DNA of 14,526 bases, taken from the IMG/VR virus record IMGVR_UViG_2778261256_000010, positions 1 through 14,526 of that record; one strand, given 5' to 3'. Both the position numbers and the translations under genes were made by a program. Positions 619 through 14,505 of the stretch are shown here, in pieces. The stretch is from a virus. Taxonomy: Duplodnaviria > Heunggongvirae > Uroviricota > Caudoviricetes. Each line of letters opens with the position of its first letter. The stretch's first letter is position 1. Below the pieces are notes generated by a model. The model saw only the letters and a program-made list of their open reading frames with translations. It had not been told where the DNA came from and made no database searches.

Positions 619-1032
619 ATGAGCAAAAATAAGCTGATTTTAACAGGAGCTTTATTGTCGTTATTTGCTTTAGTGGGGTGTAAACCCACCGACGAGAAGG
701 CTATTTCTCTGGGTCAACAGGCAATTGCGGATGATATGAAAGACCCCTCGTCTGTAATGTTTAGAAAAGATAAGTTCGTCAGGACTGATCATAATGACGG
801 GAGAGTTACCGGTTTTGTGTGCGGTGAATTAAACGCAAAAAATGGATTTGGTGCATACGTGGGCTACCACTCATATGTTGTCGAACTTGAAATGAAATCA
901 AAGGGCATGTTTTCTAAAGGTGTGGAATACAAAATCCTCATGAAGTCATTGGCACCAAACGAGCCTCATGATTTACAGCGTTATAAGCAGGTCTACAGAG
1001 AGATGTGCAACAGTGAGGCTGTAGCTCATTAA
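619..1032 (+). CDS. small lipoprotein, unknown function
   Basis: 137-aa ORF with RBS AAAGGGA 6 nt upstream; N-terminus MSKNKLILTGALLSLFALVGC has a signal peptide and lipobox (LVGC). Confidence 0.7.
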   Translation: MSKNKLILTGALLSLFALVGCKPTDEKAISLGQQAIADDMKDPSSVMFRKDKFVRTDHNDGRVTGFVCGELNAKNGFGAYVGYHSYVVELEMKSKGMFSKGVEYKILMKSLAPNEPHDLQRYKQVYREMCNSEAVAH

Positions 1033-4238: not shown

Positions 4239-4390
4239 TGATTCCATACATCATTTTATCTTTTACTGGTGGCGTGGGCCTCGGCCTCGCAATCTGCCGC
4301 GCCCTGGTCCAGCAGGAACTGCAAACCAAAACACTTCGTGTCGGTAAGCGTGTGTATCGGGTTGTTCACGAGACGGGAGTGCGAAAATGA
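4238..4390 (+). CDS. small membrane protein (50 aa), not in the supplied ORF track
   Basis: ATG 4238 overlaps the upstream stop (TGATG); MIPYIILSFTGGVGLGLAICRAL is a TM helix; stop TGA 4388-4390 overlaps the ATG of the next gene (4387). Confidence 0.4.
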   Translation: MIPYIILSFTGGVGLGLAICRALVQQELQTKTLRVGKRVYRVVHETGVRK

Positions 4391-4692
4391 GCAATTTGAC
4401 TTCCTTCGACTGGTGGCTGGCAACCTACCTTGTGGCGGCCGGCTTCGGATTTGCCTTTTACATTGGTCAGTTAATCGTAAAGCTACTGCTGATCAGATTC
4501 GCCAGCCATAAACGCATAGACGACGGTCTGTGGCGTCTGGGGTCCCTGTTAGAGACGCATTACGGCGAACTCAAGGAAAACGAAACTATCACTATTCAAG
4601 CGAAGCGTTTTACCGCCATCATCACGAGAACTCCGGAACAAAAGGGGAGCCTGATCAAAAAGATAGCAACTAAACGCATCACAGATAGATAA
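4387..4692 (+). CDS. small membrane protein (101 aa)
   Basis: N-terminal TM segment WWLATYLVAAGFGFAFYIGQLIV followed by a charged C-terminal domain; translationally coupled to the preceding small gene. Confidence 0.6.
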   Translation: MSNLTSFDWWLATYLVAAGFGFAFYIGQLIVKLLLIRFASHKRIDDGLWRLGSLLETHYGELKENETITIQAKRFTAIITRTPEQKGSLIKKIATKRITDR

Positions 4693-5189: not shown

Positions 5190-5435
5190 AAAGCAGGATT
5201 AATTAACCCTCTAGTGAAAACATTGTTGCCTTTATTGCCCCTGACTTCACAACATGTATGATTCCATACATCCAATAAGATCGAAGAATCTAACGGCAAT
5301 CAACCACCGAGAAAGATTCCAGATCTTCGCTCATATGAGCGAGCCACATACCTCGTCTGGCACTAACGTAAAGTGCAAGTTGCGGGAAAGTTTCTGGCTG
5401 CCTGGTTGTCCATAAGCTAGTACCGCCGCGAAAAT

Positions 5436-5510
5436 GATGGTGTAGCTCAGTGGTAGAGCGGTTGACTGTTAATCAACTGGTCGGTGGTTCGAGTCCACCC
5501 ACCATCGCCA
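5436..5510 (+). tRNA. tRNA-Asn (anticodon GTT at 5468-5470)
   Basis: Folded by hand into a full cloverleaf: 7-bp acceptor stem GATGGTG/CACCATC, D-arm GCTC-AGTGGTA-GAGC, anticodon stem GTTGA/TCAAC with loop CTGTTAA, T-arm GGTGG-TTCGAGT-CCACC, discriminator G, encoded CCA. Confidence 0.9.
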
Positions 5511-5663
5511 ACATAGCGCTGAACGGTTTGGATTCGCCACCACCGTCCGAACGAAAGACTCCGCAAATGTCGCCAGACCGTTCAGCGCTGTGATAGACAC
5601 GGCAGACGTTTTTTAACCATTGCTTCTAAGCATCGTAGCAACACTTTTTTCAGCGCAAAATCC

Positions 5664-5685
5664 AAAGGGGCTTCGGCCCCTTTTT
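5664..5685 (+). terminator. Rho-independent terminator downstream of the tRNA
   Basis: AAAGGGGC-TTCG-GCCCCTTTTT: GC-rich stem, tetraloop, T-run. Confidence 0.7.
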
Positions 5686-5764
5686 GCTATCAAGTCGCAT
5701 ATGCAACCAACTTTTTTTAGCTTATAGTTAAGTTCAGTAGTAGAATGCTACGCTTCGTCGAGAA

Positions 5765-6313
5765 ATGACGATTATGGAGTCTATCGTGAAATTTAAAATC
5801 CAGCATTTGCAGGCAGCAGTGGCACTGGTTCTTGCCAGTATCCAGCCGCAACCCAAAGCGGTTGCGTGTCAGCCTACGATTGTAGAACGGGTTTATGAGA
5901 TGGGCGCTAGAGTCAACAAAACCGACATCAGTGATCTTACAGCTGCTCTCAATGAATTGGCTAAAGAACTGCGTTCAAGCCGCGCTGAACTTGCTCATTA
6001 TGCTGACACTGACTTCTTTGCTGCTATCAAAGTAGCGGAAGAAATTAAGAATCAAACTATTCATGTAGCCGGTATCGCAGAATCTTTTGTTTTGATGTTA
6101 CCTGAAAAAGACGTCATCATGTCTTACGACAAAAACACTGTTGAGTTTGCGTTTTTTAAGGCTATTAAAATGGTCAGTATTGCGACCAAAAACTATCTCA
6201 ATCTGATTGATCAGATTACACGCACTTCTGTAGTGCGTGACTCTGGTGTCAACCTTTTAGCCATGAACCATCTATTAGAGACTGGCAACAAGGCTGCGGC
6301 TAAATGGCATTAA
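5765..6313 (+). CDS. putative antitoxin-like partner of the YafO-family toxin (182 aa; true start uncertain)
   Basis: ORF ends 10 nt inside the toxin gene (6304-6313 overlap), the usual toxin-antitoxin coupling. No recognisable Phd/YefM or RHH sequence signature; much larger than E. coli YafN (~97 aa). Confidence 0.45.
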   Translation: MTIMESIVKFKIQHLQAAVALVLASIQPQPKAVACQPTIVERVYEMGARVNKTDISDLTAALNELAKELRSSRAELAHYADTDFFAAIKVAEEIKNQTIHVAGIAESFVLMLPEKDVIMSYDKNTVEFAFFKAIKMVSIATKNYLNLIDQITRTSVVRDSGVNLLAMNHLLETGNKAAAKWH

Positions 6314-6720
6314 CGGCTGAATACAGTCAAGTTACGTGGGATGATTTTTTTCAGCCCACTTTTGTCGTTTACCCTGACCTAGAAAGTCAGCTCAAATCCG
6401 AGTTCATTACTTACAAATCAACTGGCGCACCATCTAATCTTCTTGGACGAGATGCGCCATTTGACTTCCCGCCGTTCGCCGTTGATGCTAATGTCCAGCA
6501 TATTCACGTCAATTTGCATTTCCAGCTTACCTGGAACGCAAGGCAAGAGAACTACAACCGAACCTCAAACCACTATCTCGTTTATACCGAGCACATGTGG
6601 GATAGCGGGCGTTTTTTGCTGATGGGGCTAGTCACTCCAGCTCACGATCGTATGCCAGCAAGAGATACTAGGTTGCTCAGCTACTTCGCTGAAGTCGCAG
6701 AAGGTTTCCATTCTAGCTGA
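6304..6720 (+). CDS. yafO: YafO-family type II toxin (ribosome-dependent mRNA interferase family)
   Basis: Aligned by eye to my recollection of E. coli YafO: FITYKSTGAPSNLLGRDAPFD vs FISYKRDGVLPDIFGRDALYD; VQHIHV vs VAHIHL; RTSNHYLVY vs RTNDEAHLVY; FLLMGLVTPAHDRMPARD vs WLLIAILKPEPHKLARD. Confidence 0.7.
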   Translation: MALTAEYSQVTWDDFFQPTFVVYPDLESQLKSEFITYKSTGAPSNLLGRDAPFDFPPFAVDANVQHIHVNLHFQLTWNARQENYNRTSNHYLVYTEHMWDSGRFLLMGLVTPAHDRMPARDTRLLSYFAEVAEGFHSS

Positions 6721-6887
6721 ACTTTAGCGATCGTCATCTTCTTCATCATTCTTTTTCTTCTAACAAATCATTCTCATCAATCTGGCTCAGATGGCATTCC
6801 AAAGTTGGCGTTATTAGGCGCTTTTTACTATTTAGCGTTTAAGATGGTTTGTCTACATAATTTATTCAGAATTTACGTAAGCTATAT

Positions 6888-6922
6888 AAATGATTCCATA
6901 CTTGTAAGGTATGGAATCATTT
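6888..6922. promoter_or_regulatory. perfect 14-bp inverted repeat AAATGATTCCATAC-N7-GTATGGAATCATTT (candidate operator)
   Basis: Exact palindrome about 100 bp upstream of the recombinase ORF; shares the core TGATTCCATAC with the 15-bp direct repeats at 4238 and 5258. Confidence 0.5.
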
Positions 6923-6973
6923 TCAAAAACAGTCTATTTTACTGTTGATCATACAAAAACTGAGGCCTAACAC

Positions 6974-6992
6974 ACTGTTTATAAATACAGTA
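6974..6992. promoter_or_regulatory. LexA (SOS) box-like site, CTGT-N8-ACAG
   Basis: ACTGTTTATAAATACAGTA against the gammaproteobacterial consensus TACTGTATATATATACAGTA; AT-rich spacer; about 30 bp upstream of ATG 7021. It is the only CTGT-N8-ACAG I found in the window. Confidence 0.5.
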
Positions 6993-7020
6993 AAAACAGG
7001 CTTCACTCAGTGAGTGGACT

Positions 7021-8124
7021 ATGAAAAACACTTTTGATAAAGCACGCGCAGCAGAAAACACCTCTAGAGAAGCCATCGAGTATCTCGAACGCGCTTCCGG
7101 TTTGTCAGCAGTGTCGACCACCAATTTCGACGGTGACATGTCGTTTTCTTCCGCATTCATGTTATTCACTCGCTTATCTTTGCTGATAACGAGACGTCGA
7201 CCTGAAATAGCTGTTCATTGTATTTTGATACATGTAATGCCGCATATCTGTGAAGTAAAAGTAAGTGACATTAGTAGGGTTTTAGTCAACCAGCTGGTGA
7301 ACCCATTAATACTTGAGGGCAAGATCGTCCAGGGCAGACGTGTGTTCTCGCTGATGAAGCAGTTTCTCAGTTGGTGTGCATTTCAGGGCTTAATTGATAC
7401 ATCCCCATTGAACGATATGTCGCTTAACAGAGTAGCCGGTGGCGCGAAGCCCACGCCGCGCGAGCGCAAACTGACCGACGCAGAGGTCTGGGTCTTTTGG
7501 AATGTATGGGACTACTTCAACGTATGTGAGGGTACAAAGTGGGCGGCCAGATTATGCCTTGTAGCGGCCAGACGACCAGATGAAGTGCTCCGAGCTAAAA
7601 GATCAGAATTCAACCTCGAATATAATTTATGGAATCAAGGAACGAGGAATAAATCGGCTCGCCAGCACTCGTTACCATTAAGCCCGCTAATGCGCAAATG
7701 TGTTGAGGAGCTGATCAAATACGGAAAAGGCAGCCAGTGGCTTGTTCCTTCAAACAAGAAACAGGGTGAGGATGTGCCAATGTCTAAGGTGGCCATATCA
7801 CAGGCGTTGAGAAGGATTTTAGAACGTCCAGAGTTGATGGAGCTTGAGCCATTTACCCCCCGAGATTTGCGTCGTACTGCGCGTAGTTACTTCCCCGCGT
7901 TAGGCATAAGTCAGGAGGTATCCCGCAAAATTATGAACCACAGTCTTGAGGGGATAGATCGAGTATACGATCGACACGATTATATAGACGAGATGCGAGA
8001 CGCCTTAAACAGTTTTTCGGCGTACATCGCATCAATCGTAGAGAAACAGGATTTAGAGGAGATAGATCATAAGTTCAAGGGAGATCGACTCGCTACTGAG
8101 CTAATCCGTGTAAATTTCTCATAG
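7021..8124 (+). CDS. tyrosine recombinase/integrase, P4-like catalytic core; arm-binding N-terminal domain absent, first ~60 aa unrelated
   Basis: Core-binding-like segment from about aa 70 (HVMPHICEVKVSDISRVL...VFSLMKQFLSWCAFQGLIDTSPLNDMS); catalytic signatures ARRPDEVL (box I Arg), FTPRDLRRTA (box II, with R where His is usual), NHS, and RVYDRHDY (catalytic Tyr). Confidence 0.65.
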   Translation: MKNTFDKARAAENTSREAIEYLERASGLSAVSTTNFDGDMSFSSAFMLFTRLSLLITRRRPEIAVHCILIHVMPHICEVKVSDISRVLVNQLVNPLILEGKIVQGRRVFSLMKQFLSWCAFQGLIDTSPLNDMSLNRVAGGAKPTPRERKLTDAEVWVFWNVWDYFNVCEGTKWAARLCLVAARRPDEVLRAKRSEFNLEYNLWNQGTRNKSARQHSLPLSPLMRKCVEELIKYGKGSQWLVPSNKKQGEDVPMSKVAISQALRRILERPELMELEPFTPRDLRRTARSYFPALGISQEVSRKIMNHSLEGIDRVYDRHDYIDEMRDALNSFSAYIASIVEKQDLEEIDHKFKGDRLATELIRVNFS

Positions 8125-11413: not shown

Positions 11414-11680
11414 ATGACCGCTACTGCACTACAGCAAGAAGAACATTTGCCGGAAGCCATCGTCTGCAAGTGGTGTGGCAAATCCTTTCATTACCTGAAA
11501 TCCCATATCTCTATGGGCCGTTGCGAGAATATTCCTGAGTCTGCGAAGGGTCTGGACGTGGACGAAGTGGTGAAGATGTACACCTCTGCGTTTCCAGATG
11601 AACCAACGATCTCTCGCACGGCACTGGCCAAACTCAATGAGAAGGGGTCGTTTGCGGGAGGGGGCGGAATCCTACGCTAA
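11414..11680 (+). pseudogene. Ros/MucR-type zinc-finger mini-protein, 3' end replaced by the Tn3-family inverted repeat (native part 11414-11643)
   Basis: RBS AAGGA 6 nt upstream. IVCKWCGKSFHYLKSHI matches the Ros/MucR zinc-finger IVCLECGGSFKSLKRHL, and SRTALAKLNEKG matches ARSRLAKEMGLG. From codon 78 the ORF is encoded by the transposon IR (GSFAGGGGILR). Confidence 0.5.
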
Positions 11681-11681
11681 G
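11644..11681. repeat. Tn3-family 38-bp terminal inverted repeat (GGGG...ACGCTAAG)
   Basis: GGGGTCGTTTGCGGGAGGGGGCGGAATCCTACGCTAAG; outer GGGG at 11644; the tnpA stop (CTA on +, 11677-11679) lies inside the IR, as is typical of the family. Confidence 0.8.
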
Positions 11682-14449
11682 GCTTTGGCCAGCGATATTC
11701 TCCGGTGAGATTGATGTGTTCCCATCCGAGCGGCGAAACATGGGCCAAGAGATCGGGCGATAGCAGCTTTCCATCGCGTTTCTGGTTTGCAACGACCTCG
11801 CCGAGCTTCATGGTGTTCCAGAAGATGATGATGGCGGCGAGCAGATTCATGCCGGCGATGCGGTAATGCTGGCCTTCGGCGGAACGGTCGCGGATTTCAC
11901 CGCGGCGGTGGAAGCTGATTGCCCGCTTCAGCGCATGATGAGCTTCGCCTTTGTTGAGCCCGATCTGGGCACGCCGTTGGAGTTCGGCATCCAGAATCCA
12001 GTCGATCATGAACAGGGTGCGCTCGACGCGACCGACTTCCCGCAGGGCTGTCGCGAGCTCGTTCTGCCGCGGATAGGAGGCGAGTTTCCGCAGAATCTGG
12101 CTTGGCGCGACGGTCCCGGCAGCAATGGTGGCGGCGATGCGCAGGATGTCGGGCCAATTGCGCTCGATCATGGCTTGGTTGACCTTTCCGCCGATCAACG
12201 CTCGCAGGTGCGCCGGGGCGGCCGACGGATTGAACGCGTAGAGCCGTTTGGATGGCAGGTCGCGGATGCGCGGAGCGAACCGGTAGCCGAGAATGGCACA
12301 TGCGGCAAAGACGTGATCGGTGAAGCCGCCCGTGTCGGTGAACTGCTCGCGGATATGGCGTCCAGCATCGTTCATCAGCAGGCCATCGAGGATGTAAGGC
12401 GCTTCGCTTGCCGTTGCAGGAATCACCTGGGTTGCGAACGGCGCATATTGGTCGGAGACGTGGCTATAGGCTTTCAGGCCCGGGGTATTGCCATATTTCG
12501 CGTTGACCAGGTTCATGGCCTCACCTTGCTCTGTAGCGACGAAGAACTGTCCGTCGCTCGAAGCCGACGTGCCCATGCCCCAGAACCGGGCCATGGGTAA
12601 CGCTGCCTGTGCCTCGACCACCATGGCCAGCGCCCGGTCATAGGCTTCGCCCTCGACATGCCACCGTCCAATGCGGATCAATTCCCAGAAGGTGTGGGTG
12701 TTTGTCGCATCCGCCATTTTGCGCAAGCCGAGGTTGATCCCTTCCGCCAAGATAACGTTCATTAGCCCGATCCGGTCAGCGCAGGGTGCTCCTGTGCGCA
12801 GATGGGTGAACGCTTCGGTGAAGCCGGTCGCCGCATCCACCTCCAGCAGGAGATCGGTGATGCGCGTGGGCGGGATCTGCTTGTAGAGATCGAGCACCAG
12901 ATCTTCGGCGCCTGTCGGCGCGGCGGCTTCGAGTTTCTCGATATGCAGAACGCCGTTTTCAATCGACCCGCCCGGGATCGTGCCTGCGCGAGCGGCACGG
13001 CCAAGCTCGCGCAACCGCATGTCGAGGCGAGCTTGCCGGTCTGCCAGCCATTCCTCCGGCCGCAATGGCACAGCGAGACGACCGCCTTCCGCGATGGATT
13101 GTGCCGGAACGAGTGCGTGTTTCAGATCGCCATAGCGCCGGGACCTAGTAAGCCAGACATCTCCGGAGCGGAACGCATCGCGCAGATGGAACAGCACCGC
13201 GATCTCCCATAGGCGAGCGTCGCCAGCCCTCTGGGCCCGAAGGTGGCGATGCCATTTCGAGCTGGGCCGCAAGAAGCTGGTCATCGCGGCATCGTTCAAA
13301 CCGGTACGAAGGGCCGTCACCGCTTCCAGAAGCGGCAGTGCAACGGGCGCAGCTCGCAGATCGAGCAGGCGCAACATGCGTGGAGCGTATCGGCGGAAGC
13401 GGTGATAACCGTCGAGCACATGATTGAGCGGATCGTCGGCCATGGTGGCGGTCAGCCTGGTTGCCATTGCAACAAGGGTTTTTAAGCCGTCCCACCCTGA
13501 CCCACTCGCGATGACATCGCCCAGCGGCTGGCCATCATCCTGTGCATCGACCAGGGCGCCCCCGATCTCGGCGAAGGATTTCAGGGTGTCACGCACCACC
13601 CCCGCTTCGTCTGCGACCTTTGCATGGCAAATACGCTCCGAAGCACGGTAGAGACGGCCGACGATCCGGTCGTGGGTTTCGACCACTGCGTCGGCCAACA
13701 TCGCCTGCCATTCCGAGACGCAAACAGCCAAGATCGCAAGCCGCCTGTCCTCCGGGAGATCGCGCATGCCGTCGGCATAATACCGTTCACCCTGCCTGCG
13801 CAGACGAGTCACCCGATGGGCAGGAACGCCGGCAAGCAGATCCTCGGGGAGATCGATGCGTTGCAGATATTCGAGCCGGTCGAGCAGCCGGTTGGCCGAC
13901 GAAGAGTTCGAGCCAGGCTCGAACTGGCGCAGCCACACAAAACGGGTCACCCGATCATCAGCCGTCTCCTCGAGCAATGCCAGCAACTGTTCTCGGATCG
14001 ACATAGGCAGCCGACTGGCGATCCTCGTCTCGATGCGTCGCTCGGCATCGACGAGAGCCGCGGCACAAAGCCGCTCGATCGTGGATGTCGCGGGAAGGAC
14101 AGTGCGGGTGCGTCGGCACTCGGCTACGAAGCGACGGGCGATATCCTCGTTCGACACCGCCATCTCGGCTTCTCGGAACAACCATTCCTTCAGCTCGCTC
14201 GCACCACGTCCGGAGAAGGTGCGGAAGCCGTAGAGCCCCCGTAACTCGGCAAGATGCTCGTGCCGTGTTTCCTCGCGGGCAGCATAGTCTACGAGATCGT
14301 CGGCACCCAGGCCAAGCTGCGCTCCGATAAATTCGATGACCTCTGCAGGGATCAGTTCGCCTGGAGCCAGCACCCGGCCGGGATAGCGCAGGACACACAA
14401 TTGCAGGGCGAAGCCGAACCTGTTGTGAGCGCGCCGACGCAGCCTGATA
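11644..14449 (-). mobile_element. Tn3-family transposon remnant (one IR plus 5'-truncated tnpA; no res, tnpR or cargo in view)
   Basis: High-GC block bounded by the 38-bp IR on the left and the IS10 outside end on the right. Confidence 0.8.
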
Positions 14450-14505
14450 CTGATGAATCCCCTAATGATTTTTATCAAAATCATTAAGTTAAGGTAGATA
14501 CACAT
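11677..14505 (-). CDS. tnpA: Tn3-family transposase TnpA, 5'-truncated (first ~18 codons of the ORF are IS10-derived; native part 11677-14449)
   Basis: 942-aa ORF; C-terminus ...LSPLGWEHINLTGEYRW is the Tn3-family signature; N-proximal SIRLRRRAHNRFGFALQLCVLRYPG matches Tn21 TnpA near residue 37-60 (recalled), so about 35 N-terminal residues are missing. Opposite-strand ORFs in this block are GC-rich shadows. Confidence 0.9.
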   Translation of the reverse strand: MCIYLNLMILIKIIRGFISIRLRRRAHNRFGFALQLCVLRYPGRVLAPGELIPAEVIEFIGAQLGLGADDLVDYAAREETRHEHLAELRGLYGFRTFSGRGASELKEWLFREAEMAVSNEDIARRFVAECRRTRTVLPATSTIERLCAAALVDAERRIETRIASRLPMSIREQLLALLEETADDRVTRFVWLRQFEPGSNSSSANRLLDRLEYLQRIDLPEDLLAGVPAHRVTRLRRQGERYYADGMRDLPEDRRLAILAVCVSEWQAMLADAVVETHDRIVGRLYRASERICHAKVADEAGVVRDTLKSFAEIGGALVDAQDDGQPLGDVIASGSGWDGLKTLVAMATRLTATMADDPLNHVLDGYHRFRRYAPRMLRLLDLRAAPVALPLLEAVTALRTGLNDAAMTSFLRPSSKWHRHLRAQRAGDARLWEIAVLFHLRDAFRSGDVWLTRSRRYGDLKHALVPAQSIAEGGRLAVPLRPEEWLADRQARLDMRLRELGRAARAGTIPGGSIENGVLHIEKLEAAAPTGAEDLVLDLYKQIPPTRITDLLLEVDAATGFTEAFTHLRTGAPCADRIGLMNVILAEGINLGLRKMADATNTHTFWELIRIGRWHVEGEAYDRALAMVVEAQAALPMARFWGMGTSASSDGQFFVATEQGEAMNLVNAKYGNTPGLKAYSHVSDQYAPFATQVIPATASEAPYILDGLLMNDAGRHIREQFTDTGGFTDHVFAACAILGYRFAPRIRDLPSKRLYAFNPSAAPAHLRALIGGKVNQAMIERNWPDILRIAATIAAGTVAPSQILRKLASYPRQNELATALREVGRVERTLFMIDWILDAELQRRAQIGLNKGEAHHALKRAISFHRRGEIRDRSAEGQHYRIAGMNLLAAIIIFWNTMKLGEVVANQKRDGKLLSPDLLAHVSPLGWEHINLTGEYRWPKP

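Follow-up and report, generated by a model that had tools for sequence, protein, structure and literature searches.

The window (the whole 14,526-nt stretch of viral DNA analysed here) carries two overlapping genes on the same strand, situated between a tRNA-Asn gene and a tyrosine recombinase gene (Table 1). The second of the two encodes a YafO-family toxin, and the first encodes a protein that is referred to below as the partner and is considered to be a putative cognate antitoxin. A first-pass annotation of this DNA had described an overlapping upstream gene of up to 182 aa; both open reading frames are indeed present, and the start of the upstream one is refined here to GTG 5786.

Table 1. 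Features of the partner-toxin locus and of its immediate surroundings, in window coordinates
Feature	Position	Strand	Basis
tRNA-Asn (GTT); context, outside the cassette	5436..5510	+	ARAGORN and Rfam
Intrinsic-terminator-like hairpin, AAAGGGGC TTCG GCCCCTTT then TT; context	5664..5685	+	Read from sequence
Conserved upstream region, promoter-like stretch and 5′ leader	5706..5764	+	Homology among 12 otherwise unrelated loci
Shine-Dalgarno-like GGAG, 6 nt 5′ of GTG 5786	5776..5779	+	Read from sequence; conserved in alignment
Partner gene, 175 aa from GTG 5786; putative cognate antitoxin	5786..6313	+	PGAP start; purifying selection over whole length
Signal-peptide-like segment, residues 1-27: MKFK, LQAAVALVLASI, QPQPKAVA, then CQP	5786..5866	+	Hydropathy, charge, A-x-A; AF2
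Helical core, residues 45-148, three long helices	5918..6229	+	
C-terminal module, residues about 111-175, proposed toxin-binding part	6116..6310	+	hhalign; 19-sequence alignment
Overlap of partner stop and toxin start, 10 nt (ATGGCATTAA); TAA 6311-6313, ATG 6304	6304..6313	+	Read from sequence
YafO-family toxin gene, 138 aa	6304..6720	+	Pfam PF13957; K-12 YafO alignment; RefSeq name
Tyrosine recombinase, full length, 367 aa, phage-plasmid backbone; context	7021..8124	+	Pfam Phage_integrase

The YafO family, as known from YafO of Escherichia coli K-12, consists of ribosome-dependent mRNA endonucleases that act in the cytoplasm and block translation. The product of the downstream gene matches Pfam PF13957 (YafO_toxin) with an E value of 1.1e-19 and 70.8 bits, against a cut-off of 25, over profile positions 2-100 of 101, and it is 31% identical to K-12 YafO over about 111 residues (E 1e-11). 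These two results agree with the earlier statement that the toxin matches YafO well. The motifs GRD, HIH and RT..LVY are common to both proteins; the window toxin differs in having an N-terminal segment of about 30 residues (F-x-P-x-F...P-x-L-E) that is absent from K-12 YafO. Its score against the NCBIfam YafO equivalog NF007377 is 52.1 bits, below the cut-off of 153, and the protein is therefore a member of the YafO family rather than an orthologue. Its name in RefSeq is ‘type II toxin-antitoxin system YafO family toxin’. By the N-terminal heuristic described below, it lacks an export signal.

The partner open reading frame extends over positions 5765-6313 (+) and encodes 182 aa from its first ATG. 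RefSeq/PGAP annotates the gene as a ‘hypothetical protein’ of 175 aa that starts at GTG 5786, which is probably the conserved start; at the corresponding position an Erwinia relative has TTG, preceded by GGGAGG and with no in-frame ATG upstream. Two further codons, ATG 5774 (179 aa) and ATG 5765 (182 aa), may be alternative starts. In a codon alignment of 11 loci, partner codons 1-40 have a pS of 0.50, a pN of 0.09 and a dN/dS of 0.12, matching the dN/dS of 0.13 in the rest of the gene, a pattern which argues that the long N-terminus is truly coding and that the whole gene is real. The refuting case named in the first-pass annotation, in which the frame would merely lengthen a short canonical antitoxin by mistake, is therefore rejected. 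At its other end, the gene overlaps the toxin start codon, an arrangement that implies predicted translational coupling; the partner and toxin genes either overlap or are separated by no more than 16 nt in all 13 pairs compared.

Two observations concern the 5′ part of the gene and its leader. Synonymous divergence in codons 1-40 (5786-5905) is about half of that in the remainder (dS 0.8 versus 1.8), which suggests an extra constraint at the nucleotide level. An overlapping antisense open reading frame was considered as the cause and rejected, because stops interrupt it in several loci, and an Rfam search of the region returned no element that would explain the constraint. Farther upstream, hexamers resembling -10 elements are present at 5723-5728 (TATAGT) and 5741-5746 (TAGAAT). 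A consensus promoter scan of the + strand upstream of the partner passed no site, so that the promoter role of this stretch is deduced from its conservation alone; by that reasoning, the region at 5706..5764 would carry the promoter of the cassette.

The partner resembles none of the families with which it was compared. Searches against Pfam, NCBIfam, PHROGs, PADLOC and PDB sequences gave nothing above threshold, BLASTP against K-12 YafN produced no alignment at E <= 100, and PF02604 was not matched. Taken with the length of 175 aa, these results support the initial remark that the partner is unlike YafN/Phd antitoxins. Its sole antitoxin-like signal is a sub-threshold match to RHH_1 (E 0.07, 13.5 bits, cut-off 20.5), and none of the DNA-binding domains that might serve autoregulation (RHH, HTH, AbrB or Phd) is found in it above threshold. 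The AF2 model (pLDDT 80) is an all-helical bundle, and fold searches with the predicted structure returned generic helical bundles only, without a specific match. Given the sub-threshold RHH_1 signal and the generic folds, we do not retain the suggestion that the protein is an antitoxin fused to another domain.

Homologues of the partner form an unannotated family whose members are all 167-209 aa long. A profile search of 1.84 billion protein representatives gave 24 matches, which indicates that the narrow family is truly small. A search with a combined profile gave 75 clusters, every one of them labeled ‘hypothetical protein’ and with a Pfam domain in one IS-disrupted copy only; the same label is attached to every family member in RefSeq, UniRef and JGI. 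The C-terminal 60 residues or so are common to all YafO-associated partners, and in an hhalign comparison the window family and a Klebsiella/Pseudomonas partner group align over 60 columns with a probability of 90.7% (E 1.3e-6). Columns Q143 and L163 are nearly invariant in an alignment of 19 partner sequences. The C-terminal module is the part that we propose binds the toxin.

The window can be assigned to an SSU5/pHCM2-like phage-plasmid of E. coli. Over 4.3 kb it is 99.4-99.9% identical to plasmids of E. coli and E. fergusonii that measure about 70-230 kb, many of them around 110 kb, and the type of element is indicated by the DNA ligase, tRNA-Asn and CobT-like genes present on those plasmids. 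Most of the matching plasmid records (834/905) are non-mobilizable, and in complete E. coli genomes all 249 matches are plasmid-borne, with none on a chromosome. The integrase, initially reported as a recombinase remnant, is instead a full-length and conserved backbone gene, with 91% identity over 367 of 368 aa to its counterpart in an Enterobacter phage-plasmid (L035 3091-4194). In the Enterobacter element it likewise adjoins a partner-YafO pair, with no tRNA, and the same integrase neighbor is found in Klebsiella relatives as well.

These comparisons bear on the first-pass view that the module holds an island-stabilizing position between the tRNA and the recombinase. A tRNA-linked genomic island is rejected, because the E. 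coli matches are all on plasmids, the pair-integrase block is free of tRNA in related phage-plasmids, and 5400-7100 contains no repeat, of any meaningful length, of the tRNA 3′ end. Relatives of the cassette elsewhere also lack an adjoining tRNA, which is thus no general neighbor of the cassette. Directly 3′ of the tRNA-Asn is a 20-nt inverted repeat (5512-5531 / 5573-5592, 90% complementary, with a 41-nt loop), and the terminator-like hairpin lies between the tRNA and the cassette, just beyond the conserved block of the latter. On the other side, the AT-rich gap between toxin and integrase contains a perfect 14-nt inverted repeat (6888-6901 / 6909-6922) with a 7-nt spacer, which could be a terminator, a recombinase site or a regulator site.

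Comparison of 12 loci gives sharp limits to the conserved segment. Homology starts about 60-80 nt 5′ of the partner start codon (about 5700-5710) and its other limit is precisely the stop codon of the toxin; outside these limits, the flanks of the loci bear no relation to one another. The segment at about 5700-6720 moves as a self-contained, horizontally mobile unit of 1 kb. On Pseudescherichia chromosomes, the genes flanking the cassette are exbD and an SDR gene. Plasmids of Pantoea and Enterobacter carry it too, as do phage-plasmids, and on F-type plasmids its neighbors are dsbA-like genes. Its place in SSU5-like phage-plasmids is a fixed slot next to the integrase. Between the window and the Enterobacter element the toxins are 43% and the partners 29% identical, as against the 91% identity of the integrases, which points to replacement of the cassette within a conserved slot.

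The two genes are associated with great regularity. An intact YafO open reading frame lies directly 3′ of the partner in 10 of the 12 genome loci, with overlaps of 7-10 nt where measured, and in one further locus both genes are frameshifted. Distant full-length partners, only 18-29% identical, have a YafO gene after them on every contig that extends far enough; decayed copies excepted, the partner is directly upstream of a YafO toxin in every readable member. The same holds from the side of the toxin, since all relatives checked at 27-44% toxin identity have an upstream ‘hypothetical’ partner of 174-201 aa (Klebsiella/Enterobacter phage-plasmids, a Klebsiella IncF/IncHI plasmid, a Pseudomonas plasmid, lambdoid phage HK639 and phage PhiR40_1). 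The pairing spans plasmids of Enterobacterales, SSU5-like phage-plasmids, lambdoid and Pseudomonas prophages, and chromosomes. Among 13 pairs, partner identity and toxin identity are correlated with a Pearson r of 0.91 over 78 pairwise comparisons uncorrected for shared ancestry; with the same reservation about ancestry, the partner has diverged further than the toxin in 78/78 comparisons. Faster divergence of the partner is the pattern typical of antitoxin and immunity proteins.

A few loci show the cassette in decay. In two Pseudescherichia chromosomes (L008 and L009, about 6530-6560), the toxin has been deleted between CGCGG microhomologies, so that partner codon ~171 is fused to the last eight toxin codons and the partner open reading frame is intact. 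The two orphan partner copies differ with a dN/dS of 0.09, and their retention fits an orphan antitoxin, the timing being blurred by recombination with intact alleles. Both partner and toxin are frameshifted in Erwinia mediterraneensis, and an Enterobacter chromosome has a deletion across the partner-toxin junction. The opposite situation is found on an F-type plasmid of Enterobacter roggenkampii (L033 3001-3934), where a frameshift in an A-run, near codon 115, interrupts the partner and the 138-aa toxin open reading frame is intact. The cluster represented by this plasmid has 10 member sequences, which makes a sequencing error unlikely; the arrangement could be explained by lost translational coupling or by a second copy of the partner in trans.

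The strict pairing of partner and toxin, conserved across deep divergence, makes a new antitoxin family the best reading of the upstream gene, and the first-pass idea of a novel antitoxin is upheld on this ground. We propose, with a probability of roughly 0.6, that the segment at about 5700-6720 is a mobile two-gene toxin-antitoxin cassette whose partner belongs to a new family of antitoxins, serving a large clade of YafO toxins that are borne for the most part on mobile elements. The pair has the layout of a type II system, with small, adjacent, co-oriented and coupled genes that move together. According to the proposal, the downstream gene would encode a toxin that, by analogy with K-12 YafO, cleaves mRNA and blocks translation, and the upstream, translationally coupled gene would encode its 175-aa, all-helical cognate antitoxin. 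The antitoxin would bind and neutralize the toxin through the conserved C-terminal 60 or so residues; neutralization by direct binding is suggested by the synteny, the co-divergence and the orphan partner. On the SSU5-like phage-plasmid, the pair would most likely act as an addiction module (post-segregational killing), and possibly as an abortive-infection module.

Several properties of the partner do not sit easily with an antitoxin. It has no recognizable DNA-binding domain or known antitoxin fold, it is nearly twice as long as YafN, and in the E. roggenkampii plasmid an intact toxin frame persists beside a frameshifted partner. A further difficulty is that the N-terminus is Sec-like in 13 of 17 partner lineages, since a functional Sec signal would place the mature partner in the periplasm, away from a cytoplasmic toxin.

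This signal-like N-terminus is the most unusual feature of the partner and was overlooked in the earlier note. In the window protein, the best 10-residue Kyte-Doolittle mean is 2.69, with a net charge of +2 ahead of it, and residue 27 is the last of an A-x-A motif; AF2 predicts a helix at residues 5-19 that is split from the core by a low-confidence, Pro/Gln-rich linker (20-29). A home-made heuristic was applied that requires a hydrophobic 10-mer with a mean of at least 1.7, preceded by a net positive charge and followed by no more positive charge. This rule flags 13/17 partner lineages, 0/21 cytoplasmic controls and 3/3 exported controls. In distant relatives, the character of the segment is kept despite changes of sequence, often in textbook form (MKESITKITMAVTLALAGMSHNACA, then D; MKFGKLASLIAAVLAFAGAHS, then E; MARTKVPFSKVAMLSLALSVSTSCA, then Q). 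The four lineages in which it is weak or absent are L034, HK639, L036 and PhiR40_1, and they include the common Klebsiella form of 201 aa. A lipoprotein reading of AVAC was rejected, since close relatives have S, R or F in place of the Cys and the preceding residues do not fit a lipobox.

The N-terminus gives rise to an alternative that we think unlikely, though worth serious consideration, namely that the partner is genuinely exported by Sec or targeted to the membrane and that control of the toxin depends on its targeting. The tripartite (n/h/c) organization kept in most lineages, the separation of exported from cytoplasmic controls, flanking charges that favor an N-in/C-out topology, and the detached N-terminal helix of the model all speak for it. 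Several forms of such control can be envisaged: a cytoplasmic precursor might neutralize the toxin while being continuously exported, with export replacing proteolysis as the source of lability; the precursor might tether the toxin at the membrane, away from ribosomes; or toxin binding might mask the signal, so that only the bound partner is retained. It is doubtful, in our estimate, that the partner is a Sec-targeted antitoxin precursor whose lifetime or location depends on its removal from the cytoplasm, through export or insertion into the membrane, and not on proteolysis by Lon/Clp. If this were so, the secretion machinery would time the release of the toxin after plasmid loss or phage-induced shut-off. 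Against an exported partner, the signal call rests on a heuristic of our own making, and the four signal-poor lineages keep both the C-terminal module and the pairing, which argues that the shared function is cytoplasmic. The A-x-A site is missing in some close relatives. Moreover, within the window’s own subfamily no part of the protein is better conserved than the N-terminus, which is unlike ordinary signal peptides, and the halved synonymous divergence is likewise atypical of them.

Protective proteins with export signals do exist. The Tsi/Tai immunity proteins of type VI secretion systems and the colicin M immunity protein Cmi have signal peptides, and their toxins act in the periplasm, where an immunity protein is of use. 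They resemble the partner, with its signal-like N-terminus, in being protective proteins encoded beside a toxin and made with an export signal; the difference is that YafO toxins have a cytoplasmic target, ribosome-bound mRNA, and that the window toxin is itself without an export signal. A literature search on ‘periplasmic antitoxin’ returned no characterized example. If the N-terminus is functional, the locus would represent a cytoplasmic toxin under the control of an exported or membrane-targeted partner, an arrangement for which we found no precedent.

It is also conceivable, and we consider it improbable, that the partner is no antitoxin at all. It would instead be a protein destined for export or for the membrane, for instance one involved in exclusion or acting at the envelope, which has a function of its own and merely accompanies YafO; some other mechanism would then control the toxin, or the toxin would be non-toxic in this clade. 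The signal-like N-terminus and the absence of known antitoxin features are compatible with such a role, as are the purifying selection on the orphan partner that has lost its toxin and the broken partner beside an intact toxin frame in E. roggenkampii. What weighs against it is that gene order, pairing and a spacing of at most 16 nt persist down to 27% toxin identity and on many types of replicon, which is hard to explain without a direct functional dependence. The toxin also retains the K-12 YafO motifs. A search of the cassette for an alternative antitoxin gave no Rfam match, no tandem repeat and no antisense or small open reading frame that is conserved; an RNA antitoxin or known RNA element was rejected, since Rfam finds only the tRNA and there are no tandem repeats.

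There is very little to be said for reading the long frame as a spurious 5′ extension of a short antitoxin beginning at M46 (182-aa numbering; ATG 5900), because, even though this ATG exists and a metagenomic gene call (P0031, 137 aa) starts there, the codons 5′ of it show the coding signal given above, relatives at 18-30% identity keep both the total length and the N-terminal hydrophobic segment, the Met is not conserved in distant relatives, and the 137-aa form likewise matches no canonical antitoxin.

Returning to the preferred reading, that of a new antitoxin family in a mobile cassette, the nearest characterized system is YafN-YafO of the E. coli K-12 dinB operon. The toxins are homologous, and in both systems the partner gene precedes the toxin gene on the same strand with close spacing. 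The partners differ: YafN is a 97-aa protein of the Phd/YefM type, whereas the window partner has 175 aa, is all-helical and dissimilar, and has a signal-like N-terminus. According to Leplae et al. 2011 (PMC3141249), the partner of a YafO toxin is either Phd or an unnamed protein assigned by ‘guilt-by-association’. The YafO sequences of that study were 25 in number and all chromosomal, and its partners were predicted from adjacency and neither named, described nor tested. The window partner family fits this unnamed class and goes beyond it in being delineated here (167-209 aa, with a helical core, a C-terminal module and a signal-like N-terminus) and in occurring on plasmids, phage-plasmids and prophages. 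In the GenBank record of phage PhiR40_1, a 179-aa partner homologue bears the label ‘YafM antitoxin’, and a Pectobacterium genomics paper lists ‘YafO/YafM’ (PMC10991766); these are depositor labels, for which we found no experiment or family definition. ‘Lone’ YafO toxins have been reported in prophages (PMC10449497). Our literature searches found no characterization of the partner, only such mentions of adjacency, reports of ‘lone’ toxins and depositor labels. What is already known in this locus, then, is the YafO toxin and the type II-like layout of the module, and what the comparisons add is a previously unrecognized partner family.

Such a family would have practical consequences. A relative of the window toxin is contained in 636 plasmid records, and YafO toxins on plasmids, phage-plasmids and prophages are now annotated as lone toxins beside a ‘hypothetical protein’. 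A definition of the partner family would correct this annotation and extend toxin-antitoxin databases. It would also provide a candidate maintenance or defense module for the SSU5-like phage-plasmids that are clinically common in Klebsiella, Enterobacter and E. coli.

Finally, we note some features of related elements and of the rest of the window. In Klebsiella and metagenomic phage-plasmids (L025-L027 244-1414; L015 1063-1499), genes resembling those for colicin M, Acb2/Tad1 and Sequestin are located just upstream of the YafO pair, and these neighborhoods look like an accessory or counter-defense region. In phage HK639 (L038 530-2438), a moron made up of a lipoprotein gene and a partner-YafO pair lies between the genes for the tape measure and the minor tail. 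At its right edge, the window holds a Tn3-family transposase gene (11677-14505, -; DDE_Tnp_Tn3, E 1e-143), which is inserted in the backbone of the phage-plasmid past the CobT-like gene. A 137-aa open reading frame at 619-1032 (+), without a Pfam family, begins with a classic lipoprotein signal (MSKNKLILTGALLSLFALVGC). Another, of 101 aa at 4387-4692 (+), has a hydrophobic N-terminal part and matches phrog_4507, which is of unknown function; its RefSeq name, ‘C-type natriuretic protein’, looks like an annotation artefact.
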